64,000 nucleotides of DNA from Candidatus Harrisonbacteria bacterium (lineage in GTDB: Bacteria; Patescibacteriota; Minisyncoccia; UBA6257; WO2-44-18): the NCBI GenBank assembly GCA_016182295.1, contig JACOXP010000006.1, positions 9,298-73,297 on the forward strand, read 5' to 3'. The notes beneath the pieces were generated by a model, which saw only the letters and a program-made list of their open reading frames with translations, made no database searches and had not been told where the DNA came from. Every line of letters begins with the position of its first letter. Positions within the stretch are counted from its first letter, which is position 1. A program made the position numbers and the translations under genes. Of the stretch, positions 1,855 to 52,399 are shown one piece after another.

Positions 1855-2739
1855 ATGAATAAAACGGAGAGGGATTTCTTGAAAAATAAGAAAGTTTTGA
1901 TTGTCGGCGCGGCTGGTTCAATCGGTGGCGCGCTTTCCCGACGGGTGGCGGAATTTAAACCAAAATCACTGACGATTTTAGATCAAAATGAAAGTGAGTT
2001 GTTTTGGATTTGGGAAGAAACCAAAGAGACCTGCAAGACTAATATGGTGATTGCCGATATTCGAAATAGAGAGCGTATTGAAGAAATCTTTTTAAACTAT
2101 CGTCCGGATATAGTTTATCATTGCGCCGCCTACAAACACGTGATCTTAATGGAAATGTGGCCGCAAGAAGCCCATCGGACGAACGTTCACGGCACTCAAG
2201 TTATTGTGGATGCCGCTCTTAAATCGGGGGTTGATAAAGTAGTTTTTATCTCCACCGACAAAGCGGTAAACCCCACTTCCGTTATGGGAATGACCAAAAA
2301 AGAAGGGGAAAAAATTTGCCTCAACGCGAATAAATTAAAAAAAACTAAATTTATCGTAGTTCGTTTTGGCAATGTGATGGCTTCGCGGGGAAGTGTAATT
2401 CCAATATTTCAAAAACAAATTAACGAAGGCAAGCACCTCACGGTAACGGATCAGCGAATGGAGCGATATTTTATGGGAATTTATGAAGCGGTGGATCTTG
2501 TATTGGAGGCTTCCATGATTGGCAAAGCCGGAGACATCATGGTATTGGATATGGGCAACCCCATGCCCATTTATGAGTTGGCCAACTTGATGGTTAAACT
2601 TTCCGGGAAAAATCTTAGAGTGAATTTTACTAAAGCGGGCAAGGGAGAAAAGTTTTTTGAGGAATTGATGACTCCCGCCGAGAGAAAACGGGCTATCAAA
2701 AGAAACGGAATATATATTATTCGCTCGAAATCTCGATAA
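1855..2739 (+). CDS. CapD/PseB/FlaA1-like NAD(P)-dependent sugar 4,6-dehydratase (polysaccharide biosynthesis protein)
   Basis: Rossmann motif VLIVGAAGSIGGAL; characteristic FISTDKAVNPTSVMGMTKK motif of the CapD/FlaA1 family. Confidence 0.7.
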   Translation: MNKTERDFLKNKKVLIVGAAGSIGGALSRRVAEFKPKSLTILDQNESELFWIWEETKETCKTNMVIADIRNRERIEEIFLNYRPDIVYHCAAYKHVILMEMWPQEAHRTNVHGTQVIVDAALKSGVDKVVFISTDKAVNPTSVMGMTKKEGEKICLNANKLKKTKFIVVRFGNVMASRGSVIPIFQKQINEGKHLTVTDQRMERYFMGIYEAVDLVLEASMIGKAGDIMVLDMGNPMPIYELANLMVKLSGKNLRVNFTKAGKGEKFFEELMTPAERKRAIKRNGIYIIRSKSR

Positions 2740-2743: not shown

Positions 2744-3700
2744 ATGCCAATAGCCACGCCAGTTTTGATTACTGGAGCCAGCGGTTTCGTTGGCGCTAAT
2801 TTGTTGCGGAGATTGGTAAATAATGGATTGGAGAAAAAAACCAACATTATTTTAAGAAAGAACTCCGACCCCTGGAGGATAAAAGATGTTTTAAAGAAAG
2901 CGCCTACCCACATCGTTGACTTGCGAAACGAAGAGGCCACCAGGGCATTGTTAAAAAAAATTAAACCCAAAACAATTTTTCATCTAGCCACTCACGGCGC
3001 TTACCCGCGCCAGCAATTTGAAGAAAAAGAAATAATGGAAACCAATATTACCTGCGCTTTTAATTTGATGAATAGCGCCGCGCGGACCGGCGTTAAATCG
3101 TTCATCAACACTGGAACTTCTTCAGAATACGGAATTAATAAAATGGCCATGCGCGAACAGGATCGTTTAAGTCCCGTTACCGCTTACGGCGCGAGTAAGG
3201 CCTGGGCCACGCTTTATGGAAATTATTTGGCCAATGACAAAAAATTCCCCGTAACTACATTGCGACTTTTTGGCGTGTACGGATATTACGAACCCCGCGG
3301 CAGGTTGATACCGAATATCATATTATCTTTTTTAGAAAATTCTCGACCAAAACTGACTAATCCGAAATTTATTCGAGATTTTGTTTTTATTGAAGATGTC
3401 GTTGACGCGTACATTATGGCCGCTGAAAGGAACATAGCCGGTTCTATTTTAAATGTAGGATCGGGAAGAAAAACGTCGCTTCAGGAGGTTTTTACTGTTA
3501 TAAAAGAAATTATGAACAGCGACGTTCGGCCAATTTTAGAGAAATCGAAAACCGGCATACCTGATATAAATAGGCGCGTTGCCGATGTGCAATTGGCTAA
3601 AAAGACTTTAAAATGGAAACCAAAGACGAATTTGCGCGATGGCTTGCGAAAGACCGTTAATTGGTTTAAAGATAACTTAGATTTATATGAACATCATTAA
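2744..3700 (+). CDS. NAD-dependent sugar epimerase/dehydratase (SDR family)
   Basis: VLITGASGFVGANLLRRL glycine-rich NAD motif; YGASK catalytic YxxxK; length typical of extended SDR sugar epimerases. Confidence 0.8.
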   Translation: MPIATPVLITGASGFVGANLLRRLVNNGLEKKTNIILRKNSDPWRIKDVLKKAPTHIVDLRNEEATRALLKKIKPKTIFHLATHGAYPRQQFEEKEIMETNITCAFNLMNSAARTGVKSFINTGTSSEYGINKMAMREQDRLSPVTAYGASKAWATLYGNYLANDKKFPVTTLRLFGVYGYYEPRGRLIPNIILSFLENSRPKLTNPKFIRDFVFIEDVVDAYIMAAERNIAGSILNVGSGRKTSLQEVFTVIKEIMNSDVRPILEKSKTGIPDINRRVADVQLAKKTLKWKPKTNLRDGLRKTVNWFKDNLDLYEHH

Positions 3701-4496
3701 GCTTAAAGAAATAGCTAAACAGATAAGACGCGACATTGTTACGATGACTGGAACAGCCCGCGTGGCTCATTCTGGTAGCGCTCTTTCGGCGGTTGACGCG
3801 CTTACGGCGCTCTATTTCAACTTTATGAAACTGAACCCGAAAAAACCAAATTGGCCGGGTCGGGACCGGTTTATTCTAAGCAAGGGCCACGCGGCCACGG
3901 CCTTATATGCCGCTTTGGCCAATCGGGGATTTTTTAAAAAAGAGAAATTAAAAACTTTCGCCCAAAACGGCAGTCATTTGACCTGCCATCCCAGTATTCA
4001 AAATGTGCCCGGGGTTGAGGCCACTACCGGCGCGCTGGGACACGGACTTTCAATTGGCGTTGGCATGGCTTTGGCGGGTAAGCGGGATAATAATAAACAC
4101 AATATTTACGTAATGATTTCCGACGGTGAATGCGATGAAGGTTCTGTTTGGGAGGCGGTGCTTTTTGCCGGCCATCACAAATTAAATAATCTTACGATTA
4201 TTGTTGATTACAATAAAATTCAGAGTTTCGGTCGAACCGCGGAAGTTTTGGATTTAGAGCCGCTAACCGAAAAATTCAAAGCTTTTAATTGGTGGACTAA
4301 GGAAGTTGACGGGCATAATTTAGGCGAACTTCTGTCAGTTTTAAAAGAAGCGAAAAAAATTAAAAACCAGCCGCAATGCTTAATCGCCCATACCGTAAAG
4401 GGGAAAGGTGTTTCTTTTATGGAGGATAGATTAGAATGGCATTATTGGTCGCCCAGCGGCGATTTGTTAAAAAAGGCGTTGGAGGAGCTTGCTTAA
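3687..4496 (+). CDS. Transketolase, N-terminal (thiamine-diphosphate binding) subunit
   Basis: SKGHAATALYAALA, HLTCHPS, GALGHGLSIGVGMA motifs of the TPP-binding half of split transketolases. Confidence 0.85.
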   Translation: MNIIKLKEIAKQIRRDIVTMTGTARVAHSGSALSAVDALTALYFNFMKLNPKKPNWPGRDRFILSKGHAATALYAALANRGFFKKEKLKTFAQNGSHLTCHPSIQNVPGVEATTGALGHGLSIGVGMALAGKRDNNKHNIYVMISDGECDEGSVWEAVLFAGHHKLNNLTIIVDYNKIQSFGRTAEVLDLEPLTEKFKAFNWWTKEVDGHNLGELLSVLKEAKKIKNQPQCLIAHTVKGKGVSFMEDRLEWHYWSPSGDLLKKALEELA

Positions 4497-4504
4497 AAAT
4501 TGAC

Positions 4505-5329
4505 ATGGAAAAATTTGATCCAATAAAAAATTTCAAAGAAGAAGAACAGGGAACTTTTTGGGACGAATATTCTAAAAATTTTATTTCGATTGAAGCGGCG
4601 CAAAGCACAAAATCTCTTTTAAGAGGTGAAATTAGATTGTGCGGAGATTTCTTAAGATCATCCGATCGATCAAACAAAGGAAAAATTTTGAAGTTGGATT
4701 TATGGAACGAAGCTCATCACACCGCGATTCTTACCTACATTCACCATTTTTACGACGAAGTTCATGCTATTGATATATCGCCGGACGTTGTTCGACAGGC
4801 GCTGAAAAAATTGGAAGAGAAAAATATAAAAGTTAAAGCGGTTATCGGCGATATGCGAAAGATGCCCTATCCGGACAATTCTTTTGACTATGTATACACG
4901 ATGGGCACCATTGAGCATATTCCGAGGCCACAGGACGCCATGGAAGAAATATTCAGAGTGCTGAAGCCGGGTGGGCGGGCGGTAATCGGTGTTCCCAATA
5001 AATATGAATGGTTTGGAAAATCTTTAATTTTGGACTTTTTTGCTCTTACCGGCATCAAGGAAGACGGCTACGAACATAGCTACGGTTGGCGGCAATTCAC
5101 TCGTGAGCTTGAAGATTCTGGATTGAGAGTTTTGCGCAAAACCGGCGCTTACTTTATGCCCTGGTTTATCCGGGCCGCCGATTGGTTCTTAGCTCAACGT
5201 TTGCCGAAAGCGGCAATCGTTTTATGGCCTTTCATAAAATTCTCCGACTATTTAAGCAATTCCAACTTCTTCCTTAAGCACGGCAGTGTTGTCGTGGCGG
5301 TTGTAGAGAAACCCCACCATGCGAGATAG
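4505..5329 (+). CDS. Class I SAM-dependent methyltransferase
   Basis: ILKLDLWNEAHHT...VLKPGGRAVIGVP (Methyltransf_11-like motifs I and post-I). Start chosen at MEKFD just after the transketolase stop; the tabulated longer ORF overlaps upstream. Confidence 0.7.
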   Translation: MEKFDPIKNFKEEEQGTFWDEYSKNFISIEAAQSTKSLLRGEIRLCGDFLRSSDRSNKGKILKLDLWNEAHHTAILTYIHHFYDEVHAIDISPDVVRQALKKLEEKNIKVKAVIGDMRKMPYPDNSFDYVYTMGTIEHIPRPQDAMEEIFRVLKPGGRAVIGVPNKYEWFGKSLILDFFALTGIKEDGYEHSYGWRQFTRELEDSGLRVLRKTGAYFMPWFIRAADWFLAQRLPKAAIVLWPFIKFSDYLSNSNFFLKHGSVVVAVVEKPHHAR

Positions 5330-6626
5330 CCAAGAAATAAAAAAAATTGCCGATCAGTATGGCACCCCTACCTTTATTGCTTGGAAAAACGTCATTATTG
5401 AGAATGTCAGGAGATTTCGGGAAGTTCTATGCCAATATCGAGGCGGTTCAACCTTGTGTTATTCGGCCAAGACCAATCCCCAGGTGGCAATTTTAAAAAT
5501 GATGGCCGAACAGGGAATATCCGCCGCCGTCTGTTCTGTTTTGGATACAACCGCTGCGTTCAGAGCGGGATTTTCTGGAGAAAGAATGATCTACGTCGGA
5601 TTAGTTAAAACGGATGAGGGTTTGGAGATCGCCGTTAAAAATAATTTTCGAATAATTAACGTTGAGTCTTATGACGAAGTTACGCGTTTGGCAAAAATTG
5701 CCGAGAAGCACAACAAAAAAGTTCCAGTGGGTATTCGACTTTCCTTTCCGTCCAAAACAGGCATTAAATCTCTATTGGGAGTCACGTATGACCGTTTTGG
5801 GGCAAGCGTTAAAAGTGGAGAAGCGCGGTCAATAGCCGAATTTATTGTTAAAAATCCCCATTTAGTTCTCGAGGGACTTCATTGCCATACCGGATCCAAC
5901 CAAACAAACGAAAAAAACTATCTGATAGGTATTAATCACTTGGTTGATTTCATGAGGTATTTAAAAGAAAAGCACAATGTTTCGATATCGATTTTGAACA
6001 TCGGCGGCGGAATAGGCGTCCCGACCATCAGGGCTTATTCGTTGGTAAATCTTGGCGTGAATTTTCTAAAAAACATGATTGGCCGGCCACTTCGCCACGT
6101 CAGTAACCTCCAATTTAGTCTTCCGGCAATGATGAAAAGAATTATCGATCATTTACATCAGACCTTGGATCGTCACAATCTTTCCCATCCCCATCTTATG
6201 ATGGAACCAGGAAGAGCGCTCGTCGGAGATGGGATAGATCTGGTAACGCGGATAGTCAACGAAAAAAGGACGGAGATTCGCAAGTGGTACATGATCGATG
6301 GGGGCACCAATCTCCTTCCCGCCCTTACCCTATTTTCAGAATCCCATGATATAACGGTGATAACTGATAATCGGGATTCCACTATGGAAAAACTTTCCGT
6401 CGCGGGGCCGCTTTTATACTCGGCTGACATAGTGGCGACCAACAGATTTTTACCAAAAGCGAGGATTGGCGATCTGATTGTGGTGCATGACGTTGGCGCG
6501 TATTGCGGCAGTCAGTCAAACCAGTTTCTTTACCCGAGAGCGGCAACCATATTGGTAAGTGGAAATACTTCAACCGTTATACAAAAACGGGAGTCGGTTG
6601 AAGACGTATTATCAAGGGATTTATGA
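5319..6626 (+). CDS. PLP-dependent decarboxylase, Orn/DAP/Arg decarboxylase family (fold type III)
   Basis: YSAKTNP (PLP-lysine region), HCHTGSNQ and a C-terminal beta-domain resembling diaminopimelate/ornithine decarboxylases. Confidence 0.75.
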   Translation: MRDSQEIKKIADQYGTPTFIAWKNVIIENVRRFREVLCQYRGGSTLCYSAKTNPQVAILKMMAEQGISAAVCSVLDTTAAFRAGFSGERMIYVGLVKTDEGLEIAVKNNFRIINVESYDEVTRLAKIAEKHNKKVPVGIRLSFPSKTGIKSLLGVTYDRFGASVKSGEARSIAEFIVKNPHLVLEGLHCHTGSNQTNEKNYLIGINHLVDFMRYLKEKHNVSISILNIGGGIGVPTIRAYSLVNLGVNFLKNMIGRPLRHVSNLQFSLPAMMKRIIDHLHQTLDRHNLSHPHLMMEPGRALVGDGIDLVTRIVNEKRTEIRKWYMIDGGTNLLPALTLFSESHDITVITDNRDSTMEKLSVAGPLLYSADIVATNRFLPKARIGDLIVVHDVGAYCGSQSNQFLYPRAATILVSGNTSTVIQKRESVEDVLSRDL

Positions 6627-7603
6627 AAAAAGTTCTCATTACCGGGGCAACCGGATTTATCGGAGGCGCGTTGGTTAAACGTCTTTTAAAAAATAAAAAT
6701 TACAAAATAATTTGCTTGGTGCGGGATTTGAGCAAAGCGGCCAAGCTTAAGGAATTGGGGGCCGAACTTGTTAAATGGGATATGACGGATTCCCAAAACG
6801 TTGAAGATGCTATGCGTAATGCATCGATAGTAATTCATCTGGCGGCGGTTTTGGCGAATAAACACGCGTCCAAAACGGAAATGCGCGCCGTTAACGTTGA
6901 TGGAACAAGAAACATTTTGAAAATTGCTAAACTAATCGGCGCGAAACAGTTTATTTTTTTAAGTTCGGCGCTTTTAAGCTGGCACAGGAGTATTGATTGC
7001 CCCAATGAAGAATCGCCGGTTCTTCCGACTACCGAATACGAAAAGACAAAATTAGAGGCGGAGCGTTTGGTCAAATCCGCTTCTTCTTCGGAGTTTCAAA
7101 CCACGGTAATGAGACCCGGAGTTGTTTACGGTCCCGGAGGCATCGGCTTTTCTCCATTATTCAAAGCTGTTAAAACGGGGAAGTTTTTCTATGTAAATAA
7201 TGGTTCTCACATTTTTGAGCTGACTTTTATTGATGATCTGATTGATGTTATTCTAGCCACCATCGGCAATAACAGCGCCTACGGAGAGACTTTTATTATT
7301 TCCGAACAAAATCCCAAGACCTTTCGGGAATTTACGGAACAAATCGCTAGAACTATCGGGGTGACTCCGCCCAAGCTTAGCATCCCGGCCCCTGTTTTTA
7401 AAATCGCCTGGATGTTTTTATATCCGCTTGAGCTTTTAGGTCTCCCGATTCCGATCAGCGAAAGCACTTTTAAGACCCTTACTTTGCGCCGCGTTTTCGA
7501 TACCACTAAAGCAAAAAAGATGTTAAATTATACAGCGCGAATTTCATTGGAAGAGGGCGTTAAGCAATCAGTCGATTACTATAAAAATATCGGAATTTTA
7601 TGA
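6623..7603 (+). CDS. NAD-dependent sugar epimerase/dehydratase (SDR family)
   Basis: VLITGATGFIGGALVKRL NAD motif; YEKTK catalytic YxxxK. Confidence 0.8.
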   Translation: MKKVLITGATGFIGGALVKRLLKNKNYKIICLVRDLSKAAKLKELGAELVKWDMTDSQNVEDAMRNASIVIHLAAVLANKHASKTEMRAVNVDGTRNILKIAKLIGAKQFIFLSSALLSWHRSIDCPNEESPVLPTTEYEKTKLEAERLVKSASSSEFQTTVMRPGVVYGPGGIGFSPLFKAVKTGKFFYVNNGSHIFELTFIDDLIDVILATIGNNSAYGETFIISEQNPKTFREFTEQIARTIGVTPPKLSIPAPVFKIAWMFLYPLELLGLPIPISESTFKTLTLRRVFDTTKAKKMLNYTARISLEEGVKQSVDYYKNIGIL

Positions 7604-8517
7604 GAAAAGCGTTTATAGATACTCTTTTTGAATTGGCGAGAAAGGACAAAAATATTTTTCTGTTGAATGCAGATTTAGGCTTTTCGGTTTTAGAAAAATT
7701 TAATCAAGCTTACCCCAAACGAGCTATTAACATGGGCATAGCAGAAGCCAATTCTATAGGAACGGCTGCTGGTTTGGCGTTATCCGGAAAAACAGTTTTT
7801 GTTTATTCAATTATTCCTTTTGTGACTTTCCGTGTTCTGGAGCAGATCCGTAATGACGTGGCTATGCAGGAAGCCAATGTTAAAATAGTCGGCATCGGTA
7901 GCGGTTGGAGTTACGGTTCCTTAGGCGCCACCCACCATGCTATAGAAGATATCGCCGTTCTTCGTTCAATACCGGGCATGCGAATTGTCTGTCCGGGTGA
8001 TCCGATAGAAGCGGCAGCGGCCACTAAAGCCATTACCAAAACCAAAGGGCCGTTTTATTTTCGTCTTAACAAAGCGGGAGATCCGATTGTCCATAAAACC
8101 ATTCCAAAATTCCGGATTGGCGAAGCAATTCAAGTTCGGCCCGGAAAGGATCTGACGATCATCACCACCGGCAATGCTCTACCCGGCGGCGCGATCGTCA
8201 GTGACATTTTGTCCGAAGATGGATTAAGCGTTCGATTGATTTCCATGCATACAATTAAACCACTGGACGAAGCCACCGTTAAAAAAGCGGCCAAGGAAAC
8301 CAAGGCAATTTTTACTTTAGAAGATCATAATATTCTTGGAGGATTGGGCAGCGCGGTCGCGGAAATTTTGGCGGAAAATCGATTCGGCGGAGTGTTCCAT
8401 CGCTTTGGCGCGAAAGACGCTTTCACTCATATTGCCGGCCCCCACGATTTTTTGCGGGAGCATCATGGGCTTTCTCCTAAAAATATTGCTAGAGTTATCA
8501 GGCGGAAAATCGCATGA
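7600..8517 (+). CDS. Transketolase, C-terminal (pyrimidine-binding) subunit
   Basis: NMGIAEANSIGTAAGLALSGK motif and C-terminal transketolase domain. Pairs with the N-terminal subunit at 3687-4496. Confidence 0.85.
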   Translation: MRKAFIDTLFELARKDKNIFLLNADLGFSVLEKFNQAYPKRAINMGIAEANSIGTAAGLALSGKTVFVYSIIPFVTFRVLEQIRNDVAMQEANVKIVGIGSGWSYGSLGATHHAIEDIAVLRSIPGMRIVCPGDPIEAAAATKAITKTKGPFYFRLNKAGDPIVHKTIPKFRIGEAIQVRPGKDLTIITTGNALPGGAIVSDILSEDGLSVRLISMHTIKPLDEATVKKAAKETKAIFTLEDHNILGGLGSAVAEILAENRFGGVFHRFGAKDAFTHIAGPHDFLREHHGLSPKNIARVIRRKIA

Positions 8518-9692
8518 AATTATCCGGCTTCAGAATCGGAGATTTTTTGGAATTGCGCGGCTGGAAGCTATTGGAAATCTCTAAGGAAATTCCTTTAATA
8601 ATAAATTTCAATTGTCCGGCGGACGACGGACAGCTGAAAACCATCGCTACCCTGGTCGGCAATTCCGGAAGACAAATACGTATTGGCTGCTGTCCAAACT
8701 GCGGTTATATCGGTTACATAGACAAATTGAGCAAAGATTGGATCAATCGTTTTTATTTGGAAACCTGGGATGATGCCGTAAATCAAGATGTTCAAAAAAA
8801 AGCTCAGAAACTCAAAGAAAAATTAAAAACCGGCTACAGCGGGAAAGAACAGCTTGCTATCTCCGCCATCAAAACTTTGAATATTGATAAAAGCCGTTAT
8901 GTATGCGAGATAGGATGCGGATTCGGCAAATCTTTAAATCAGCTTCGCCGATTGGGCTTTGAAAAATTGGTAGGAATTGAAAATTCTTCTCATCGCGCGG
9001 CAATTGCCGCCAAAGCTTATGGTTTGAAAACTATAGCCGCTCCTTTTGACGAAGCGGCAAAGAATTCGGAGCTTAGCAAACTGGCTCCTTTTAGCCTGAT
9101 TTATTCTCATCACGTTCTTGAGCATGTTTATAATCCGGCGGAGATGATTAGGATCGCTTCTGAATTACAGAAAGAAGAAGATTATCTCGTTACCGTTATC
9201 CCTAATTTTATTGGCGAGCCCTCGGTGGGTGTTCTTGGTTTCTTTCCGCATCTCCATTCTTTCACGGAAACCGCGCTCACCGGTCTTTTAAGGCGTTACG
9301 GATATAAAGTAATAAACAGATCTCTTACTAATGATAGAGAGATCTGTGTTGTCGCTCAAAAAACGCGAAAGGCGATCGCGGCAACGGTTTTGAGGGGAGC
9401 TTATAATCTGGCTTTGGAAAAACTTAAACGCGGATTGGCGTTAGACGGAAATCACATTTCTTTTCCGGCTAGATTTTGGTGGTACGCGAAAAAATCAGAT
9501 CAAGGCGGCTGGAAGAAATACTTTAAGAACCGGTTCTTGGATAAAATTTATTGGAAACTAGCTTCTTTTGGGAGAAAATATAAAGGAACCAGAGTTTTGG
9601 TTGTTGAAAATCTCAATGGTCGCTATAATTCGGAACAAGCTTCGCCTATTGAGATTCAATTTAATGGGGAGATAAAATTATTTTATAAATAA
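8514..9692 (+). CDS. SAM-dependent methyltransferase with N-terminal zinc ribbon (TylC3-like sugar C-methyltransferase candidate)
   Basis: Cys4 ribbon (CPADDG...CCPNCGY) followed by class I MT motif CEIGCGFGKSL and a long C-terminal domain. The architecture matches sugar C-methyltransferases. Confidence 0.6.
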   Translation: MKLSGFRIGDFLELRGWKLLEISKEIPLIINFNCPADDGQLKTIATLVGNSGRQIRIGCCPNCGYIGYIDKLSKDWINRFYLETWDDAVNQDVQKKAQKLKEKLKTGYSGKEQLAISAIKTLNIDKSRYVCEIGCGFGKSLNQLRRLGFEKLVGIENSSHRAAIAAKAYGLKTIAAPFDEAAKNSELSKLAPFSLIYSHHVLEHVYNPAEMIRIASELQKEEDYLVTVIPNFIGEPSVGVLGFFPHLHSFTETALTGLLRRYGYKVINRSLTNDREICVVAQKTRKAIAATVLRGAYNLALEKLKRGLALDGNHISFPARFWWYAKKSDQGGWKKYFKNRFLDKIYWKLASFGRKYKGTRVLVVENLNGRYNSEQASPIEIQFNGEIKLFYK

Positions 9693-9693
9693 A

Positions 9694-10602
9694 ATGAAAA
9701 AATATTTTTGGATTTTCCGGTATTGTTGGAAACACTTCAGCAGATTTTTAATGAGACCGTACTATTCAATTAGAACATCTTGGCCTGTGTGGTTCGGCAT
9801 TTTAAATAAAGAGGGGCGGCTATTATACGATCGACATCCCAAAAACCACGATTCTGTTTTGGAAAAAATCATAAAAGAAATAAAAGAAAAAGGCATCGCC
9901 GTTACTCATCTTGACGAATTATTTCCCGGAAGAAATCTTTTGCCGGAATTGCAAAGTTACACAAAAAAACTTGCTGAAACCGCTCAAATAAAAAAAGGCA
10001 AGGAATTTCTAATGGCTCTTTGGGAAACGGCTGGGGTTTTGGATTTAGATAATAGTTTAGTTAAATTATCCCTACAATCAAGATCGCTGGAAGTAGTAAA
10101 CGCTTATATGGAGATGTTTTCCAAGTTCCGCCACGCTTCTTTAAATGTAACAATACCGATGCCGGAGGGATCGTTGGCGATAAAATCACAGCGCTGGCAT
10201 CGCGATCCGGAAGACAAACGGATGTGCAAAATGTTTGTTTATTTAAACGATATTGATGAAGATGCCGGCCCGTTTATTTACATTCCCAAATCTCACCAAG
10301 GAGGAAAATGGAGAGAAATTTTCCCCCAGCGTCCGCCAGTCGGCTACTACCCTCCGGATGGAGCGGTGGAAAAAGTTATCCCCTCAGCCGAAATAAAAGT
10401 TTGTACCGGCCGCGCCGGTACGGTAATATTTGGCGATACCAGCGGTTTGCACAAAGGAGGCTACGCCAAGTCCAAAGAGCGATATATGTTTACGGCTACT
10501 TATTCATCGAAAGCGTCTCTTTGGCAAACATATTATGCGCTGCCGTCAGCCGGTCAATTAACCGAATTAAACCTATTGGCTCGCTACGCGGTTACAAAAT
10601 AG
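9694..10602 (+). CDS. PhyH-like Fe(II)/2-oxoglutarate-dependent dioxygenase
   Basis: WHRDPED ... FIYIPKSH ... GLHKGG resembles the HxD...H facial triad region of phytanoyl-CoA dioxygenase family enzymes. Confidence 0.55.
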   Translation: MKKYFWIFRYCWKHFSRFLMRPYYSIRTSWPVWFGILNKEGRLLYDRHPKNHDSVLEKIIKEIKEKGIAVTHLDELFPGRNLLPELQSYTKKLAETAQIKKGKEFLMALWETAGVLDLDNSLVKLSLQSRSLEVVNAYMEMFSKFRHASLNVTIPMPEGSLAIKSQRWHRDPEDKRMCKMFVYLNDIDEDAGPFIYIPKSHQGGKWREIFPQRPPVGYYPPDGAVEKVIPSAEIKVCTGRAGTVIFGDTSGLHKGGYAKSKERYMFTATYSSKASLWQTYYALPSAGQLTELNLLARYAVTK

Positions 10603-10607: not shown

Positions 10608-11966
10608 ATGAAGACAGTTTTTTTGTGCGTGCCCAATTACGTTTTTTCAACAGATCTTCTGCGCACGCGTTATATCGGTTATCTAGCATCCAAATACAAA
10701 GTAGTGGTTTTTATGCCGATGATCGGTCCAGAAGAAGCGAAGCGCGTCGGTTATTTTCATTCTACAAATGTCCAGTATGTAAAGTGGGAATTGGAAGTGC
10801 CAAAATTTTGGAGCATTTTTAAGTTATTCAGAATAGCGGCAATGACCGAGTTCGATTATCTCGAATCGGTCCGACACTTCTATAAACGACCCACTTTCAA
10901 AAACAATTGGCAGAGACGTTTGGTCCGTTTTTTCGCGAAGCCGTTTGGGCAGTTATTGACGGCTGATTTTTTTACAAAACTTGAAAGCCGTTTACACCCT
11001 CGATCTCTTCAATTTGATAAATATCTCAAGCAATTCCAGCCAAGTTTGGTAATCACGGCCACGCCGGGTTTTAATCCTTTTGAAGCAGAAATGATTTTAT
11101 TGGCTAAACGATCGAAACTGCCAACGGCGGCTGTTAATTTTACTTGGGATAATTTGACAACCAACTGCAACCATATTAGAAAAACTGATTATTTGATTGT
11201 TTGGAACGATATTGTTAAAGAGGAAGCGAAGAAAATTCATCACTACGATCTGGCTAAAGTTTTCGTCGCCGGTGTTAACAAGTTCGACCATTATTTTAGA
11301 AAAGAAGGCAAACTTAGTCGTGAGGAATTCTTAAAAAGTAAAAAATTAGACCCCAAAAGAAAGACAATAGTTTTTTGTAGCAAGCCGAAAACCTACGTCG
11401 AGCAATTAGATCACGTTCGCGGCATATTGGAAGCGCGCGAAAAAGGACGTCTAGCCGCCCCCGTTAACCTATTGATCAGGCCTCACCCGCTGGATAATCG
11501 AGATAATTATAAAGAATTTATAAATTTACCGAATGTTTATGTTGATTATTCTGGTAAATCAATGAAGTTTTCCGCCGAATCAGTTTCCAATAAAATTGAG
11601 ATGGACGAGGAGGATTTAATGAATTTGAAATACACCTTGCAATACGGAGATGTGCACCTTCAATATGGATCAACCCTGGCGCTGGAAGCGGCAATTTTTG
11701 ACAAACCAATGGTTAATATCGGTTTTTTGAAAACCCTTAATCATGACACAAGCTATAAGGTAACTCATTTTTGGCCGGTTATTGAGACGGGCGCTTCTCC
11801 AATAGCTAAAACGCCAGAGGAACTTGTTGATTTAACCAATCAATATTTAAAAAACCCGATGTTGCATAAAGAAAATCGCCGACAGCTTTTGGAAAAATTC
11901 GTGGTCCTGCGCGACGGTTTTGCTTATAAACGGAATGTGGATTTCCTGGGAAACGTTTTATCCTAA
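10608..11966 (+). CDS. GT-B-like transferase with HP motif, uncharacterised family (paralog 1 of 3, plus a divergent fourth)
   Basis: Start taken at MKTVF immediately after the upstream stop (the tabulated ORF extends out of frame into the upstream gene). Shares TPGFNPFEAE..AKR..PTAAVNFTWDNLT, RPHPLD and C-terminal GSTLALEAAIFDKP blocks with 19406-20737 and 24358-25743. Confidence 0.6.
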   Translation: MKTVFLCVPNYVFSTDLLRTRYIGYLASKYKVVVFMPMIGPEEAKRVGYFHSTNVQYVKWELEVPKFWSIFKLFRIAAMTEFDYLESVRHFYKRPTFKNNWQRRLVRFFAKPFGQLLTADFFTKLESRLHPRSLQFDKYLKQFQPSLVITATPGFNPFEAEMILLAKRSKLPTAAVNFTWDNLTTNCNHIRKTDYLIVWNDIVKEEAKKIHHYDLAKVFVAGVNKFDHYFRKEGKLSREEFLKSKKLDPKRKTIVFCSKPKTYVEQLDHVRGILEAREKGRLAAPVNLLIRPHPLDNRDNYKEFINLPNVYVDYSGKSMKFSAESVSNKIEMDEEDLMNLKYTLQYGDVHLQYGSTLALEAAIFDKPMVNIGFLKTLNHDTSYKVTHFWPVIETGASPIAKTPEELVDLTNQYLKNPMLHKENRRQLLEKFVVLRDGFAYKRNVDFLGNVLS

Positions 11967-11993: not shown

Positions 11994-13571
11994 ATGACTT
12001 TTCGAGAAATTCAGAATTCTGTTTTTCGACTGATGGAAAATCCGGGCGCGACCGTATCCGATCACTTGTCGATCGCGAATCAGCTGGAAGACAGCAAAAA
12101 AGAAAAACCGGAATACTTCCGCGGCATTAAAGCCGCTTTTTTGAGCAACTTTACCATTAAGGGATTGCCGGAGATTTTTAGAACGCGGGCAATTTTCCAC
12201 AATGTCTGGGCGGATGTTTATCTTGGCCCCTATGATCAATGCGCTCAGGAAATTCTTGATAAAAAAAGCGGCCTGTATAAATTCCAGCCGGATTTAATTT
12301 ATTTTCTTTTCGACGCCGACGGCGAAAAGGCAAATCATTACAAAGAACTAGCCAGCCAACTTTCTGGCAAGGTGATGCTGATGGACAGTAATCAAATAAA
12401 AGCGGTCGTCGGTAATTATTGGCAAACCAAATATAAAGAGATGGGAGATTTCAGCGTGGCGCCAGAAGGATTTTCTACACTAGCCGATTATTTAATGAAA
12501 GAAACAATCGCCGTGAGCGGCGCTACCAAAAAATGTTTGGTGTTGGACCTTGATAATACGTTGTGGAAAGGAGTAATTGGTGAAGACGGCCTTGAGGGAA
12601 TAAAACCAGATCAAGATTTTCAACGTCAGGCCCTTTATCTTTATGAGACTGGAGTAATTCTGGCGATAAACAGTAAAAATAATTCAGAAGACGTGCTGGA
12701 AGCAATTGAAAAGCATCCGAAAATGATTCTACGAAAAAATCATTTTGCCGCTTGGCGGATCAATTGGCAGGATAAGGCAACCAATATGAAAGAATTGACG
12801 GATGAGTTAATGCTGGGGGCCGACAGTTTTGTTTTTGTCGATGATAGTCCGTTCGAGAGGAATATCGTGGCCAATAAATTTCCGGAAGTAGCCATTCTAA
12901 GCCCTGAAAGCCTGAAAAATTATCCCGGCTTCCATAAATTAAAAATTACCGATGAAGATCGACGTCGCGGTCAAATGTATGCCGAGGAGCAAATCCGCAG
13001 AAGCGCCCGATCTTCATTAAATAACGTGGAAGATTTTATAAAGTCATTGAATTTGGAAGTTACTATTCGAGAAATAAAATCGGACAGTCCCATTATCCCG
13101 CGTATCGCCCAAATGGCTCAAAAGACCAACCAGTTTAATATGACGACCAAGCGTTGGAGTGAAGATGAAATCAGGACTCTGCTTAATGAACGGCACAATT
13201 ATAAAATGTGGGCTGTTGAGGCAATGGATCGTTTTGGCGATTACGGTATTATAGGTTTCTTGGCCGCAAAGCCCGTAGTTGATAAAGTTTGGGAAATTGA
13301 TAATTTTTTAATGAGCTGCCGTATTCTGGGACGAGGAATAGAAAAGACGCTGTTGGCTCGCGTGATTGAAGAAGCGAATCGGAGCAAAATCAGCAAACTT
13401 ATAGGGGTTTTTATTCCGACCAAAAAAAATAAGGCGCTTTGTGAAGATTTCTATCCAAATAACGGTTTTAATAGTGGGCTTGTCTACAAATCCGCCGATT
13501 CTGTAAACTTTATTCATCACCTAAACAGCCCCTACCCATATCCAGAAAACATAAAAGTAAATTTCTCTTAA
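11994..13571 (+). CDS. FkbH-like HAD-superfamily (subfamily IIIC) phosphatase/acyltransferase
   Basis: LVLDLDNTLWKGVIGEDG (HAD motif I DxDxT), FVFVDDSPFERN, and a C-terminal GNAT-like region. Architecture of FkbH-type glyceryl-ACP loading enzymes. Confidence 0.7.
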   Translation: MTFREIQNSVFRLMENPGATVSDHLSIANQLEDSKKEKPEYFRGIKAAFLSNFTIKGLPEIFRTRAIFHNVWADVYLGPYDQCAQEILDKKSGLYKFQPDLIYFLFDADGEKANHYKELASQLSGKVMLMDSNQIKAVVGNYWQTKYKEMGDFSVAPEGFSTLADYLMKETIAVSGATKKCLVLDLDNTLWKGVIGEDGLEGIKPDQDFQRQALYLYETGVILAINSKNNSEDVLEAIEKHPKMILRKNHFAAWRINWQDKATNMKELTDELMLGADSFVFVDDSPFERNIVANKFPEVAILSPESLKNYPGFHKLKITDEDRRRGQMYAEEQIRRSARSSLNNVEDFIKSLNLEVTIREIKSDSPIIPRIAQMAQKTNQFNMTTKRWSEDEIRTLLNERHNYKMWAVEAMDRFGDYGIIGFLAAKPVVDKVWEIDNFLMSCRILGRGIEKTLLARVIEEANRSKISKLIGVFIPTKKNKALCEDFYPNNGFNSGLVYKSADSVNFIHHLNSPYPYPENIKVNFS

Positions 13572-13575
13572 AATT

Positions 13576-14016
13576 ATGAAATCCAATCCTACTTTACAGT
13601 TAAGCAATTTGAATTACGAAGGCATAAAGATCGATCAGGAATTTTCCTTCGAACGCTTGGTGGACAAGCAATTAGTCGATGAATTTGCCAAATTAAGCGG
13701 CGATTTCAGTCCTCTGCACATGGATGATTCTTACGCCAAAACGACTAAATTCGGCGAACGGATCGCCCATGGGATGCTTTTGGCCAGTTTTTTCTCTGCT
13801 CTGGTGGGGATGTTGTGTCCCGGGAAGAAAGGTTTATATTTATCCCAAACAGCAAATTTTAAAAACCCGTGCCGTTTGGGAGACAAACTTATTGTTATGG
13901 GCAAGATAAAATCAAAATCGGATTCAACCAGAACATTGGAATTAAGCACAATAATTAAGAATACTAACGGGAAAATTTTGGTGGACGGGTCGGCAATGGT
14001 AAAATTTTTAGAGTAA
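13576..14016 (+). CDS. MaoC-like (R)-specific hotdog-fold dehydratase
   Basis: FAKLSGDFSPLHMD...AHGM is the MaoC dehydratase signature; about 146 aa single hotdog. Confidence 0.75.
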   Translation: MKSNPTLQLSNLNYEGIKIDQEFSFERLVDKQLVDEFAKLSGDFSPLHMDDSYAKTTKFGERIAHGMLLASFFSALVGMLCPGKKGLYLSQTANFKNPCRLGDKLIVMGKIKSKSDSTRTLELSTIIKNTNGKILVDGSAMVKFLE

Positions 14017-14019
14017 TTT

Positions 14020-14721
14020 ATGGATCTTAAATTAAAAGGCAAAGTAGTTCTTATATTGGGAGGAACCGGAGGGATCGGCTCTGCGATAACGGCGGAATTC
14101 CAGAAAGAAGGCGCTTCGGTTTGCGCCCATGGGCGTTCGGGCAATTACGCTACTGATCTGACGTCTGAAGACGCGATGGCTGGGCTGGTGGAAAAGGCAA
14201 TGAAACAATTTGGGCGGGTTGATACGGTGATCAATTCTCTATCGACTCCGGTAAAACACGGAGCTTTAGAGTCAAAAAAATGGTCCGATTTTCAGGACCA
14301 AATTGATGTTCAAACACGCTCGTTTGTTGATTTATTGCCGCTGGTTGTGCCGACGATGAAGAGGCAGGGTGGCGGCCGAATAATAAATATTTTAACCACT
14401 TACGTGATTGGGCAGCCCCCGTCCGGGTTGGCTGATTACGTAACTGCCAAATACGCGCTATTGGGCCTGACTAAAGCGGCAGCCAGAGAATTGGGTAAAT
14501 ATCACATAACGGTAAACGCCGTTTCCCCGAGTTTTATCCGCAATAAATTTACCGATCGGATACCGGAAAAATTTGACGAATTGTTAATCAGCCAGACTCC
14601 GCTTGGTCGTTTAGCAACTCCGGAAGATGTGGCGAGAACCGTTTTATTTCTTGCTTCAGAAAAAGCCGAGTTTATTACCGGTGAGAATATCATTGTTGCC
14701 GGTGGCCAAACAATGGATTAA
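14020..14721 (+). CDS. Short-chain dehydrogenase/reductase (FabG-like ketoreductase)
   Basis: LGGTGGIGSAI cofactor motif; YVTAKYAL catalytic YxxxK. Confidence 0.85.
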   Translation: MDLKLKGKVVLILGGTGGIGSAITAEFQKEGASVCAHGRSGNYATDLTSEDAMAGLVEKAMKQFGRVDTVINSLSTPVKHGALESKKWSDFQDQIDVQTRSFVDLLPLVVPTMKRQGGGRIINILTTYVIGQPPSGLADYVTAKYALLGLTKAAARELGKYHITVNAVSPSFIRNKFTDRIPEKFDELLISQTPLGRLATPEDVARTVLFLASEKAEFITGENIIVAGGQTMD

Positions 14722-14732
14722 TTTTAATTTTT

Positions 14733-14960
14733 ATGAAGACACTTGAAGAAATAATTGCCGGCGTTTTAACGATTGATGTCAAATCGGTCAATGATCAGAC
14801 CAGTCCGGAAAATACTCCCGGCTGGGATTCTTTTAACAGTATTCTTTTGGTTAGCGAAGTTGAAAAAAATTTCAACGTCAAATTTGAATTGGATGAGGTA
14901 GTGGGATTGAAAAATGTCGGGGATTTTCGGGCTCTCTTGAAAAAACGCGGCGCTTTTTAG
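14733..14960 (+). CDS. Acyl carrier protein
   Basis: 75 aa, acidic, with GWDSFNSILLVSEVE containing the DS(F/L) phosphopantetheine attachment serine context. Confidence 0.7.
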   Translation: MKTLEEIIAGVLTIDVKSVNDQTSPENTPGWDSFNSILLVSEVEKNFNVKFELDEVVGLKNVGDFRALLKKRGAF

Positions 14961-14962
14961 GA

Positions 14963-16066
14963 ATGAAAATCGAATTTCTGGATAAAAAGGATCGGAGCTT
15001 GCTAGAACAATTTTATCGGGAAAGCTATTCTCCAAAATATATTTTGCTCAGAAAAGATTTTTTTGATTGGTACACGGTTAAAAATCCGAATTACCGAGAT
15101 CGATTCCCGGATGGACAACTTCCAGTTCTGGTTCTTAGAGACGATAAAAGGATCTTGGCTCATTGGGTTTGCGGAGCGCAAAAATTCAATTTTTTTGGGA
15201 GAAACTTTTCTATGTTCTGGACTTCTAATTGGATGGTTCATCCGGATTTTCGCCATCGTGGTTTGGGTGCTCTTATAACTAATTTTTTGCAAAAGCTGCC
15301 GGTGGATGTATTGGCGGCAAATATGGTGACCAAAGAATCAAGGAATGTCTTAGAGCGACTTAATTATCAATATCAAGACCTTAATCGTTATTTAGCGGTT
15401 TTTTCTGACGAAGCTTTAAATTTAGTTAACCACCGAAATGATCCAAGAGTTCGGGATCGTTTGCGGGAAGTTATTATCCCCGCTAAGAATGGCGATTTTG
15501 CCAATATTGAGCCGGTTTCCGCCTTTGCAGAAGACTATAACGAGTTTTGGCACAGCGGTTTCGCGCCCGTAGCGCAAGGCGGAGCGCGCGACGCCGATTT
15601 TTTAAACTGGCGATATCCGCAAGCTCCGTTTTTTGAATATCGCTGTTTTGTGGTTAAAGACAATCAAAAAAAGATAAAAGGGGTGATTGTTTTACGCATT
15701 GATGAGATTCGAAACACTAACTACCGAGCTTGTCGGATGTTGGAATTTTTTACTGATCCGGAATGGGCAAAACTAGCCGCCGAATTTGTAATCAGCTATG
15801 CCCGGCGGGAAAAATGCGTTTTTCTTGACTATTACAATTTGTTTTCCGGTTTTGATTCATTTTTCGCGGAAGCCGGAATTTTAAAGAATGATTCCGTATT
15901 ATCAACGGAAATTCCAAGATTGACTCAACCGGTAGCTCATGAGAATTGGTTTATTAACGCGGTTTTTTGGAAGAGGAATCCTGAAATTTCCAACGAAACT
16001 TTCTTTAATTTCGACAAATGGTATACTACCTCCGGCGATTCAGATCAAGATCGAAAAAATTTTTAA
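14963..16066 (+). CDS. GNAT-fold-like putative acyltransferase, paralog A (candidate carrier-protein-dependent transferase)
   Basis: Paralogous to 27807-28892: shared N-terminal block, the GNAT-like HPDFRHRGLG versus KKDLRSLGYG, and a near-identical C-terminal WYTT.SD.DQDR tail. Sits directly after an ACP gene. Confidence 0.5.
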   Translation: MKIEFLDKKDRSLLEQFYRESYSPKYILLRKDFFDWYTVKNPNYRDRFPDGQLPVLVLRDDKRILAHWVCGAQKFNFFGRNFSMFWTSNWMVHPDFRHRGLGALITNFLQKLPVDVLAANMVTKESRNVLERLNYQYQDLNRYLAVFSDEALNLVNHRNDPRVRDRLREVIIPAKNGDFANIEPVSAFAEDYNEFWHSGFAPVAQGGARDADFLNWRYPQAPFFEYRCFVVKDNQKKIKGVIVLRIDEIRNTNYRACRMLEFFTDPEWAKLAAEFVISYARREKCVFLDYYNLFSGFDSFFAEAGILKNDSVLSTEIPRLTQPVAHENWFINAVFWKRNPEISNETFFNFDKWYTTSGDSDQDRKNF

Positions 16067-16972
16067 ATGATTTCAAATAGCGATCAGTATATTGTCGTCA
16101 ATTATCATTTCGTTTTAAATCCCGAAGATCGTCCGGATTTAGGCGGAATTTTTCCGTGCCTGCCGGAGACTTTTTCTAATCAGCTAAAGTGGCTTAAAAA
16201 GAATTTTACTTTGACAGCCGTGGATGAAGTTTATAGAGCCGCCCGTGAAAAACGGTCCGGCCGTTTTTGCGCGTTAACCTTTGACGATGGCACTCGAGAC
16301 CATCTGGAAATAGTTTTCCCGTTGCTGCGCGAACAGCGAGCGCCGGGAACATTTTTTGTCATAACGGGTCCGTTTGAGGGGAAAATGCCCACTTCGCATA
16401 AAATCTATAGATTAAGATCAGAGCTGACAATCCCCGAATTAATAGATCATTATAACAATTTTTCTAGAAATCCTATGCCCACCGACAAATTTATCGATCC
16501 AACCGAGCGGTATGATGATTTGCTTACATCAAATTTTAAAACCACGATAGCGCGTTTGCCGCACTCCGTGGCGAATGAATTTATGAACGTGCTATTTTCT
16601 CAATTGGGGTGGGACGAAAATCTTGAGGCCAGAAAGCTTTTTTTAATGCCGGAAGATATTGTTAAAATGAAGTCGGGAGGAATGAAATTCGGAGCGCACG
16701 GTGACAGTCACAATCCCTTTCCGGTTTTAAAAGATGATGAAGTGGCAAACGAACTTAGGAATTCAAAACGAATACTCGTTGATCTTTTAGGAGAAGAAGT
16801 TCATTTATTTTCTTATCCGCATGGACAGTATCGCCGCCAACACCCAAAATTAATAGAGGATTTCGGTTTCCACTATGCCGCCACGACCGAAAGACGATCA
16901 ATCAACGGAATCGAAAATAAATTTTTGCTGCCTCGTTTTGACGCCAACGATCTAAAAGATATTCAAAAATGA
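16067..16972 (+). CDS. Polysaccharide deacetylase (CE4, NodB homology domain)
   Basis: TFDDGTRD and HGDSH motifs of CE4 deacetylases. Confidence 0.8.
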   Translation: MISNSDQYIVVNYHFVLNPEDRPDLGGIFPCLPETFSNQLKWLKKNFTLTAVDEVYRAAREKRSGRFCALTFDDGTRDHLEIVFPLLREQRAPGTFFVITGPFEGKMPTSHKIYRLRSELTIPELIDHYNNFSRNPMPTDKFIDPTERYDDLLTSNFKTTIARLPHSVANEFMNVLFSQLGWDENLEARKLFLMPEDIVKMKSGGMKFGAHGDSHNPFPVLKDDEVANELRNSKRILVDLLGEEVHLFSYPHGQYRRQHPKLIEDFGFHYAATTERRSINGIENKFLLPRFDANDLKDIQK

Positions 16973-17904: not shown

Positions 17905-17907
17905 TTT

Positions 17908-25746: not shown

Positions 25747-26088
25747 ATGGTCATGAAAGGAATCGGAATCGATATAATCAAAATAAATCGTTTTAGAAGA
25801 ATCCCTTATAAGAAGCGACCGTCTTTTTATAAAAATATATTTACTAATCTCGAAATTGAATATTGTCTTGGTAAAAAAGATCCTTACCCGAGTTTTGCCG
25901 CGAGGTTTGCCGCAAAGGAGGCAATCGTCAAAGCGGTTGGTGGGACTATTTATAAAGCGAGACAAATCGAGATTCGTAAAGGCAGTTCTGGCCGGCCGAT
26001 GGTGAAGCTTCAAGGTCGAAAAAAGATACTGCTCTCTTTATCTCATGACGGAGAATACGCCGCCGCTATTGCTCTATGGTTAAACTAA
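25747..26088 (+). CDS. acpS: Holo-[acyl-carrier-protein] synthase (4'-phosphopantetheinyl transferase)
   Basis: GIGIDIIKINRF...FAAKEAIVKA is the canonical AcpS signature; 113 aa. Confidence 0.8.
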   Translation: MVMKGIGIDIIKINRFRRIPYKKRPSFYKNIFTNLEIEYCLGKKDPYPSFAARFAAKEAIVKAVGGTIYKARQIEIRKGSSGRPMVKLQGRKKILLSLSHDGEYAAAIALWLN

Positions 26089-44230: not shown

Positions 44231-44235
44231 CGCAA

Positions 44236-47524: not shown

Positions 47525-47547
47525 TCTGGATTTATATTAAGTAAAGC

Positions 47548-52396: not shown

Positions 52397-52399
52397 AAC

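Follow-up and report, generated by a model that had tools for sequence, protein, structure and literature searches.

The 64,000-nucleotide stretch of Candidatus Harrisonbacteria DNA analysed here (contig JACOXP010000006.1, positions 9,298 to 73,297; hereafter the window, with positions counted from its first nucleotide) encodes a split transketolase in two genes, one for the half with the thiamine diphosphate (ThDP)-binding PP domain (TK-N) and one for the half with the Pyr and C-terminal domains (TK-C). This enzyme is most likely dedicated to the tailoring of sugars for a glycan, its predicted activity being the addition of a two-carbon (C2) piece to a sugar. The divergence of its substrate pocket, its synteny with genes for nucleoside diphosphate (NDP)-sugar enzymes and the fusion of a related TK-N to a short-chain dehydrogenase/reductase (SDR) speak for the transfer of a C2 unit to a nucleotide-keto-sugar rather than for a housekeeping role, and on this point they bear out an earlier reading made from the letters alone (the sequence-only reading), which had assigned the transketolase to sugar tailoring. 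The subfamily to which the enzyme belongs can be recognised from sequence, is large and spans phyla, from bacteria of the candidate phyla radiation (CPR) to Paenibacillus; no description of it in glycan loci was found in the literature searched.

Both halves have their best PDB match in the split transketolase of Carboxydothermus hydrogenoformans, which shares the two-chain architecture and the cofactor residues (TK-N with 6YAK, 276 bits and 49% identity; TK-C with 6YAJ, 190 bits and 35% identity). The ThDP/metal motif is present in TK-N (S145-D146-G147-E148...N176), and in alignments this half retains H28, H68, H101, D146, N176 and H252 while TK-C retains R2, S29, E49, H112 and R155, the counterparts of R359, S386, E418, H481 and R528 of the yeast enzyme. 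The catalytic histidines (yeast H30, H69, H103, H263 and H481) and Glu418 are thus kept (TK-N H28/H68/H101/H252; TK-C H112/E49), and because these transketolase histidines are conserved a dihydroxyethyl (glycolaldehyde) unit is predicted to be carried rather than an acetaldehyde unit of the pyruvate type.

The pocket itself has changed. In TK-C, His469 of the yeast numbering is replaced by Gly100 and Asp477 by Leu108, and the canonical T-H-x-G...G-E-D-G-x-S-H-Q reads G-I-G-S-G-W-S-Y-G-S-L-G-A-T-H-H, whereas the C. hydrogenoformans enzyme has the canonical pocket (A-T-H-A-G...G-E-D-G-A-S-H-Q) with the histidine and aspartate that are absent here. Yeast H469 helps to bind the substrate phosphate and D477 binds the C2 hydroxyl of the acceptor. 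Loss of the aspartate that holds the alpha-hydroxyl fits an acceptor other than a 2-hydroxy-aldose, and in the engineering of E. coli transketolase mutation of the Asp477-equivalent broadens the acceptor range. The same Gly100/Leu108-type loss is common to 56 of the 57 TK-Cs aligned from related contigs, the lone exception (L058) having a non-glycan context. It also occurs in approximately 140 of the best 150 TK-C representatives, drawn from 50%-identity clusters of a library of 1.84 billion proteins, with both the histidine and the aspartate kept in one. Further clade-specific positions are Q to H119 and G to Y253 in TK-N and S to Y69 in TK-C, with H119 and Y253 carried by all of the 120 best TK-N homologues; the closest relatives of TK-N are from CPR bacteria (59-68% identity).

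The split transketolase of Enterococcus gilvus, which served as a control and lies in an rpiB/fsa/tpi/dha context, retains the canonical motif. The best NCBIfam model for the two proteins of the window is NF004559, which gives TK-N 294 bits and TK-C 192 bits; its cutoff, set for the full-length protein, is 488, and these low totals are due in part to the split architecture. With TIGR00232, TK-C scores 49.5 bits compared with 115 for the canonical TK-C of E. gilvus. As judged from these features, TK-N and TK-C are members of a non-canonical subfamily and are not the canonical transketolase (EC 2.2.1.1).

The idea that the altered pocket is unique to glycan loci was rejected. In a split transketolase of Rhizobium sp. 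T136 plasmid pT136c (L097, 6156-7921) the canonical histidine and aspartate are absent too, and its pocket (G-I-S-S-G...G-E-L-G...T-H-H) is partly similar to that of TK-C. The gene lies in a sugar-catabolic cluster with an ABC transporter, an FGGY kinase, tpiA and SDRs. This transketolase may be of the apulose-4-phosphate (apiose-pathway) type, for which no specific NCBIfam model exists. The altered pocket is thus a mark of non-standard substrates in general and not of glycan synthesis alone.

A metagenome scan provided 80 further loci with the transketolase pair (43-60% identity), annotated with our own gene calls and BLAST labels; many of the contigs are short, and the neighbour counts over these 80 loci are lower bounds. 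In at least 58 of the 80 loci one or more glycan-type homologues are found no further than three genes from the pair, and in at least 36 the pair has an SDR-like gene as its immediate neighbour; such a gene is directly upstream of the pair in 23 of 76 loci. The two halves are adjacent in 63 of 65 related loci, unlike in the window. Examples of such loci are L008, with the order SDR, SDR, TK-N, (methyltransferase), TK-C and GT2, followed further on by NeuB and a cytidylyltransferase, and L009, with NTP_transferase, NUDIX, SDR, SDR, TK-N and TK-C, followed further on by DegT, GT2 and Wzy_C-TPR. TK-N is directly preceded in L031, L044 and L048 by a gene for a true TylC3-type C-methyltransferase (matching PF08484 in all three and PF08421 in L031), and SDRs resembling 4,6-dehydratases occur upstream of the pair; in L031 these and a nucleotidyltransferase precede the C-methyltransferase.

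The subfamily is also found in a cultured bacterium, Paenibacillus cellulosilyticus, in a cluster on plasmid NZ_CP054609.1 (record 43309-53603, L093). This begins with a glycosyltransferase, a GT2-methyltransferase, rfbF (glucose-1-phosphate cytidylyltransferase) and rfbG (CDP-glucose 4,6-dehydratase), and continues with a C-methyltransferase of TylC3 type, an SDR::Transketolase_N fusion of 635 residues and TK-C; an O-methyltransferase resembling TylF and a further glycosyltransferase come last. Its TK-C has a pocket of the same type (V-G-V-G-A-G-F-A-Y-G-G-Q-G-P-T-H-H). No other single argument for action of the subfamily with an SDR on a nucleotide-sugar is as strong as this fusion to an SDR within a 6-deoxyhexose cluster. 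The cluster adjoins spore-germination genes.

In the window, the genes around the transketolase form an unbroken run on the + strand with codons overlapping or almost abutting. Profile searches found between 3687 and 10602, on this strand, all four of the gene types that the sequence-only reading had named there, namely a split transketolase, a zinc-ribbon methyltransferase, a PhyH-like oxygenase and a pyridoxal 5′-phosphate (PLP) decarboxylase, the profile support being strong apart from the weak PhyH-like match. A second methyltransferase (MT1, 4505-5329) had been overlooked, and the transketolase had been described as a pair; both halves are indeed present but are not contiguous, three genes (MT1, the decarboxylase and SDR3) standing between them. 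Of the three SDRs that had been added to the proposed pathway, only SDR3 lies within this segment; SDR1 and SDR2 are situated just upstream of it. The gene order is TK-N, MT1, PLP decarboxylase, SDR3, TK-C, MT2 and PhyH-like oxygenase, and start/stop overlaps of 4-14 nt at SDR2/TK-N, MT1/decarboxylase, decarboxylase/SDR3, SDR3/TK-C and TK-C/MT2 indicate a single operon. The features are as follows.

1855..2739, + strand: SDR1, a PglF/Pen-like UDP-N-acetylhexosamine (HexNAc) 4,6-dehydratase (Polysacc_synt_2; PF02719, E=3e-97)
2744..3700, + strand: SDR2, an extended SDR (PF01370, E=5e-44)
3687..4496, + strand: TK-N, ThDP/PP-domain half of the non-canonical split transketolase (PF00456, E=5.5e-49)
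4505..5329, + strand: MT1, a protein of class I methyltransferase fold with degenerate motif I (PF08241, Methyltransf_11, E=1.5e-21)
5319..6626, + strand: fold-type III PLP decarboxylase (PF02784 plus PF00278)
6623..7603, + strand: SDR3, an HpnA/OleD/3-beta-HSD-like reductase (PF01370, PF01073, PF07993)
7600..8517, + strand: TK-C, Pyr plus C-terminal half (PF02779, E=8e-34; PF02780, E=3e-24)
8514..9692, + strand: MT2, a methyltransferase with a zinc-ribbon-like N-terminus (PF13489, Methyltransf_23, only)
9694..10602, + strand: PhyH-like Fe(II)/2-oxoglutarate oxygenase (PF05721, E=1.2e-5)
10608..11966, + strand: TagF-like/BFO_1060-family transferase (NF046086, E=1.6e-20; PF04464 weak)

With regard to the SDRs, the best PDB matches of SDR1 are PglF (5BJU, 202 bits) and Pen (6BWC, 178 bits), and it is the probable source of a 4-keto-6-deoxy sugar; in L012 and L013, too, the transketolase pair has an SDR1-like gene in its vicinity. 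The stop of SDR2 overlaps the start of TK-N by 14 nt, and the gene that directly precedes TK-N is SDR2-like in loci such as L008-L011, L050, L062 and L090 (37-44% identical in the closest); SDR2 is a conserved partner of the transketolase pair. SDR3 matches TIGR03466 with 130 bits, below the cutoff, and has a homologue of 31% identity directly after the decarboxylase in L092; it is a candidate ketoreductase. The combination of a ThDP enzyme with a 4,6-dehydratase and a partner reductase, which is contiguous here as SDR1, SDR2 and TK-N, recurs in L008-L011, L031, L044, L048 and L093.

The segment is part of a surface-glycan locus of more than 55 kb which also contains nonulosonic-acid genes, a setting that the sequence-only reading had not recognised, and which makes up a large share of a CPR-sized genome. 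A hydrolysing 2-epimerase (NeuC_NnaA), a PseF-like cytidylyltransferase and a NeuB-like synthase are encoded at 28902-30792 and 38721-39842, the NeuC-type epimerase being supported by a profile match of 362 bits, above the cutoff. No DegT-type aminotransferase was seen among the scanned genes of the window to approximately 44 kb or in the 10 kb upstream, and the route is therefore not the standard legionaminic or pseudaminic one.

Among known systems, the closest in kind are the split-gene transketolases proposed to place a hydroxyacetyl branch on a keto-sugar during miharamycin and amipurimycin biosynthesis (PMC12247030). As with the locus described here, a two-gene transketolase stands among sugar-tailoring genes with C2 ketol transfer to a keto-sugar proposed for it, and a preceding oxidoreductase is thought to create the keto acceptor. 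The two differ in that those clusters are for actinomycete nucleoside antibiotics and the present one is for a CPR cell-surface glycan, and the likeness is one of description rather than of compared sequences. They differ also in extent, a large subfamily across phyla standing against 13 predicted examples that are all split-gene, all from Streptomyces and none characterised (PMC12247030).

In YerE/YerF and in the E1 alpha/beta proteins of aldgarose and kibdelomycin, which are of the alpha-keto-acid-dehydrogenase type, a ThDP enzyme encoded beside a 4,6-dehydratase adds a two-carbon branch to an NDP-4-keto-deoxysugar. YerF is the partner reductase, which acts on the branch after YerE. However, the YerE and E1 types belong to other ThDP superfamilies and use pyruvate as donor for an acetyl or hydroxyethyl branch, whereas the unit expected from the conserved histidines of TK-N/TK-C is dihydroxyethyl (hydroxyacetyl). 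For the YerE type, the branching of nucleotide sugars by ThDP enzymes is established, the E1 type is backed by feeding, knockout and analogue substrates, and branching of the transketolase type is a proposal drawn from a handful of Streptomyces antibiotic clusters (PMC12247030).

Some of the non-canonical TK-Ns possess N-terminal lipoyl and E3-binding domains (P0152, P0173, P0189, P0190, P0207 and P0212). In L096 (892-4650) a lipoyl-bearing TK-N directly follows an E1 alpha/beta pair of the pyruvate dehydrogenase type, and in L012 (10001-13668) the split transketolase adjoins such an alpha/beta pair. Both loci, then, hold E1 alpha/beta and split transketolase as two ThDP systems together, with a lipoyl carrier in L096 and in the fused proteins.

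The best explanation for the segment, to which we give about an even chance of being right, is that it encodes three co-transcribed tailoring modules within a mosaic and that the transketolase adds a C2 ketol to a sugar carbonyl. Every substrate and product in this scheme is inferred, the observations beneath it being the identity of the genes, the signatures of the subfamily, synteny, fusions and likeness of fold. Module 1 would comprise SDR1, SDR2, TK-N and TK-C. In it SDR1 would make a UDP-4-keto-6-deoxy-HexNAc, and TK-N/TK-C would use a ketose phosphate or hydroxypyruvate as donor of a C2 ketol unit and join this to the sugar carbonyl, the C4 ketone being favoured, so that a tertiary alcohol with a hydroxyacetyl branch would result. 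The new ketone may afterwards be reduced by SDR2 and/or SDR3, in parallel with the action of YerF after YerE when yersiniose is made. Module 2, consisting of MT1 and the decarboxylase followed by SDR3, could install or modify an amine-bearing group, either by aminocarboxypropyl transfer from S-adenosylmethionine (SAM) with subsequent decarboxylation or by decarboxylation with subsequent N-methylation. In module 3 (MT2, the PhyH-like oxygenase and the TagF-like transferase), the methyltransferase and the Fe/2-oxoglutarate hydroxylase may decorate a nucleotide-sugar or the glycan of the adjacent transferase. The sequence-only reading had envisaged instead a single pathway to one sugar, which gives way to this mosaic, given that MT2 and the PhyH-like gene travel with the TagF-like gene and the decarboxylase is tied to MT1.

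A number of points weigh against this explanation. Transketolases normally accept aldehydes and not ketones, and the Arg/Ser/Arg phosphate site that is kept here fits an ordinary sugar-phosphate substrate as well. The non-canonical pocket in the Rhizobium catabolic cluster means that the signature is not glycan-specific, the lipoyl fusions in some members of the subfamily hint at acyl rather than ketol transfer, and MT1 resembles N-methyltransferases more than MccD. There is no aminotransferase or nucleotidyltransferase adjoining module 1 in the window, the nearest NTP_transferase being at 44236, and the boundaries of the modules are inferred from few contexts. The Streptomyces precedent is itself an unproven proposal (PMC12247030).

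A transketolase of housekeeping or precursor-supply type, that is an ordinary pentose-phosphate enzyme or a feeder of sedoheptulose-7-phosphate, xylulose-5-phosphate or erythrose-4-phosphate which is in the glycan operon by chance, is very unlikely. The gene carries the NCBI name 'transketolase', TK-N is 49% identical to a functional split transketolase, that of C. hydrogenoformans, and all of the ThDP and catalytic histidine residues are retained along with the Arg/Ser/Arg phosphate site; but two invariant substrate-binding residues are lost (His469 to Gly, Asp477 to Leu), and in the true pentose-phosphate context of E. gilvus a canonical split transketolase keeps the motif. CPR genomes are small and depend on the non-oxidative pentose phosphate pathway, and there is no second transketolase within the 64-kb window. 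Against this, the halves are split by three tailoring genes and translationally coupled to SDRs, and the same subfamily occurs SDR-fused in a CDP-glucose cluster on the plasmid of Paenibacillus, while an organism such as P. cellulosilyticus has a chromosomal Tkt. Alternatively, the pair could work in the manner of QncN/QncL, the dihydroxyethyl-ThDP being oxidised and passed to a thiol carrier so that a glycolyl or other C2 acyl group is placed on the N or O of a nonulosonic acid or amino sugar. We consider this improbable, if somewhat less so than a housekeeping role. Fusions to lipoyl plus E3-binding domains are seen in members of the subfamily with 57% identity to TK-N, but neither a lipoyl domain nor an E2 acyltransferase or E3 is encoded in the window. 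The window does have two carrier proteins, an FkbH-domain loader, GNATs and two N-deacetylases, a set typical of N-acyl exchange on nonulosonic acids; nevertheless, over approximately 80 loci it is SDRs and NDP-sugar enzymes, and not carrier proteins, that are conserved as partners, and the SDR::TK-N fusion lies in a CDP-6-deoxyhexose cluster without an acyl carrier protein (ACP). The model for this alternative is QncN/L/M, which make glycolicacyl-ACP from ketose phosphates (PMC6335953).

An aldehyde may also be the true acceptor, with the ketol unit going onto a hexodialdose nucleotide or onto a free 6-deoxy-HexNAc such as the product of a NeuC-like enzyme to give a longer ulose, or with the reaction running in reverse to trim a ketose. 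In transketolase chemistry an aldehyde is the preferred acceptor, the absence of Asp477 suits an acceptor in which no alpha-hydroxyl is free, and the NeuC-like and NeuB-like enzymes of the locus handle free aldoses. No aminotransferase was seen in the scanned genes of the locus to consume a 4-keto intermediate, and the DegT beside the pair in L009, L010 and L092 could aminate the new ketone. On the other hand, no C6 oxidase was identified, and the pool available in Paenibacillus, L031, L044 and L048 is a 4-keto-6-deoxyhexose in which the sole carbonyl is a ketone; this reading is accordingly put on the same low footing as the Qnc-type one. More elaborate, and in our estimate as doubtful as the housekeeping role, is a combined route in which a C-branched or chain-extended 6-deoxy-HexNAc made by the transketolase would be fed to NeuC/NeuB to yield a branched or more than nine-carbon ulosonic acid, which MT1 and the decarboxylase would aminopropylate or N-methylate.

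If this combined route is the true one, its C-branched or chain-extended 6-deoxy-HexNAc would represent a class not seen before, and a first biochemical role would be provided for the large, phylum-spanning family of 'sugar transketolases'. The pocket signature offers a simple sequence marker for the reannotation of genes labelled 'transketolase', and metabolic reconstructions of CPR bacteria that count such genes as pentose-phosphate enzymes could be wrong. The sugar-branching proposal also becomes directly testable, with the cultured P. cellulosilyticus as a practical model.

Turning to module 2, MT1 matches PF08241 only from profile position 12 onward. Its motif I is degenerate (LKLDLWNEAHHT, invariant in six sequences), and its family has L-K-L-D-L-W-[ND]-E-x-H-H-T in place of the glycine-rich SAM loop of class I enzymes, which makes for an unusual cofactor site. 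Among solved structures its profile matches generic methyltransferases and phosphoethanolamine N-methyltransferases best. With the decarboxylase MT1 forms an obligate pair, the MT1 domain being fused N-terminally to the decarboxylase in P0229, P0230, P0232 and P0233 (approximately 700 residues). In Gottesmanbacteria (L092) the order is TK-N, TK-C, GT2, MT1 (8187-9026), decarboxylase, SDR3-like, SDR and DegT, and in Paceibacterota (L091) an MT1-decarboxylase fusion is located 2.4 kb from TK-N and TK-C. These two loci overturned the view, taken from a scan centred on TK-N, that the decarboxylase never accompanies the transketolase pair.

The decarboxylase had been placed by the sequence-only reading in the ornithine/diaminopimelate family and given an amine-generating step, a role that amounts to a guess since the Cys-Glu motif of LysA is absent. 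It shares with LysA the fold, the PLP lysine and the HxGS, GGG and EPGR motifs, and LysA TIGR01048 is its best NCBIfam model, with 263 bits against a cutoff of 298. However, the C-E-[SA]-G-D motif of LysA reads L-Y-S-[AS]-D across the clade (L-Y-S-A-D here), Leu-Tyr standing where C-E-S-G-D has Cys-Glu, and there is an insertion of approximately 28 residues relative to LysA. The clade, which is found only in CPR glycan loci, is tight (40-57% identity), its named members are all CPR, and beyond it scores drop to generic LysA-like proteins. A tblastn search against plasmids returned mainly LysA-type genes among the matches listed, and a scan of genome contigs gave one irrelevant match of 22% identity. 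The protein thus belongs to a CPR-restricted clade and is no diaminopimelate decarboxylase.

A methyltransferase-fold protein together with a fold-type III PLP decarboxylase, in overlapping genes here and fused in relatives, is reminiscent of MccD/MccE by analogy; MccD and the N-terminal domain of MccE aminopropylate microcin C (PMC10491745). As homologues of MccD/MccE the two proteins were rejected at the sequence level, MccD (5FCD) appearing at rank 43 with E=0.008.

MT2 had been described as a TylC3-like C-methyltransferase with an N-terminal Cys4 ribbon. A ribbon-like motif is present but is not Cys4, since it reads C34-P-A-D37 ... C59-C60-P-N-C63, that is Cys3 plus Asp, with CxxC...CxxC in more distant members of the family. 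The profile check suggested for it found no match to PF08421 (Methyltransf_13) or PF08484 (Methyltransf_14) even at E<=10, and MT2 differs in this from the TylC3-type proteins beside related transketolase pairs, which match PF08484. Its family comprises 106 clusters (26-48% identity apart from the self-match of 100%), the few with source names being metagenome-assembled genomes of Patescibacteria/Parcubacteria, and conserves the N-terminal C-P-x-[DC]...C-x-x-C as well as an invariant H200-x-x-E203-H204 and H246. Searched with the family profile, the first hit is 4RV9 (D-mycarose 3-C-methyltransferase, MtmC), followed by TcaB9 and KijD1, with E of approximately 1e-10 over the core; H181 and H225 of TcaB9 align with H204 and H246, while E224 of TcaB9 aligns with a proline.

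An AlphaFold (AF2) model of MT2 built from 34 sequences has a pLDDT of 93 and a beta-rich N-terminal domain. In Foldseek its top 18 PDB matches are all sugar C3-methyltransferases, these being MtmC, KijD1 and TcaB9 (E 7e-16 to 5e-13, 300-319 aligned columns, TM 0.44-0.53, sequence identity approximately 16%), and other methyltransferases follow at 1e-8 or worse. MT2 resembles TylC3, TcaB9, KijD1 and MtmC in having a ribbon-like N-terminus, a class I core and one additional domain at the C-terminus. The proposed likeness therefore holds for the closest fold, and MT2 does not group with O- or N-methyltransferases, but it falls outside the Pfam family; on the strength of the model it is best regarded as a divergent relative of the sugar C3-methyltransferase fold, outside the Pfam-defined family, and not as an O-/N-methyltransferase look-alike. 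Along with the MT-fold/decarboxylase fusion, this TylC3-fold family adds further enzyme families tied to CPR surface glycans.

The match of the PhyH-like oxygenase to PF05721 is weak and partial (26.2 bits against a cutoff of 22, profile positions 115-207), and the HxD...H triad is kept in four homologues (WHRD...GLHKGG...KER). MT2, the PhyH-like and the TagF-like genes recur together twice in L004 and once in L006, and on account of this recurrence they are treated as a separate module. Such groupings occur in loci without a transketolase alongside, and L005 has a true TylC3-type gene in addition to, and apart from, the MT2 homologue; MT2 and the PhyH-like oxygenase need not act on the product of the transketolase. 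In total there are five TagF-like (Glyphos_transf/BFO_1060-family) transferases, at 10608-11966, 19406-20737 and 24358-25743 in the window and at 1315-2661 and 6487-7842 of L094. The latter is the 10 kb upstream, to which the locus extends beyond the window with more methyltransferases, two of these TagF-like genes, a GT4 and a 714-residue YfhO.

The region 11994-16066 encodes an FkbH-domain protein (TIGR01686, 276 bits, above the cutoff), a MaoC dehydratase, a FabG-like SDR, an ACP (14733-14960, 75 residues) and a GNAT-like protein, and looks like a glyceryl- or hydroxyacyl-ACP module that N-acylates an amino sugar or nonulosonic acid. It is followed at 16067-19409 by two tandem polysaccharide deacetylases, a methyltransferase and a formyltransferase-domain protein, which suggests N-deacetylation with subsequent re-acylation or formylation. 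There is also a DltA-like AMP-binding enzyme at 26076-27816, whose gene overlaps that of a DltC-like carrier of 76 residues; a protein of 361 residues without a family match comes next.

At 42080-44230 a Wzy_C (O-antigen ligase-like) domain is fused to TPR repeats. Proteins of this Wzy_C-TPR type (approximately 716-770 residues) recur in CPR glycan loci with the transketolase pair, namely L009, L013 and L091. Downstream of the glycan locus, at 55904-59104, lies a gene for a 1066-residue protein with lamin-tail (LTD) domains, which is probably a surface protein.

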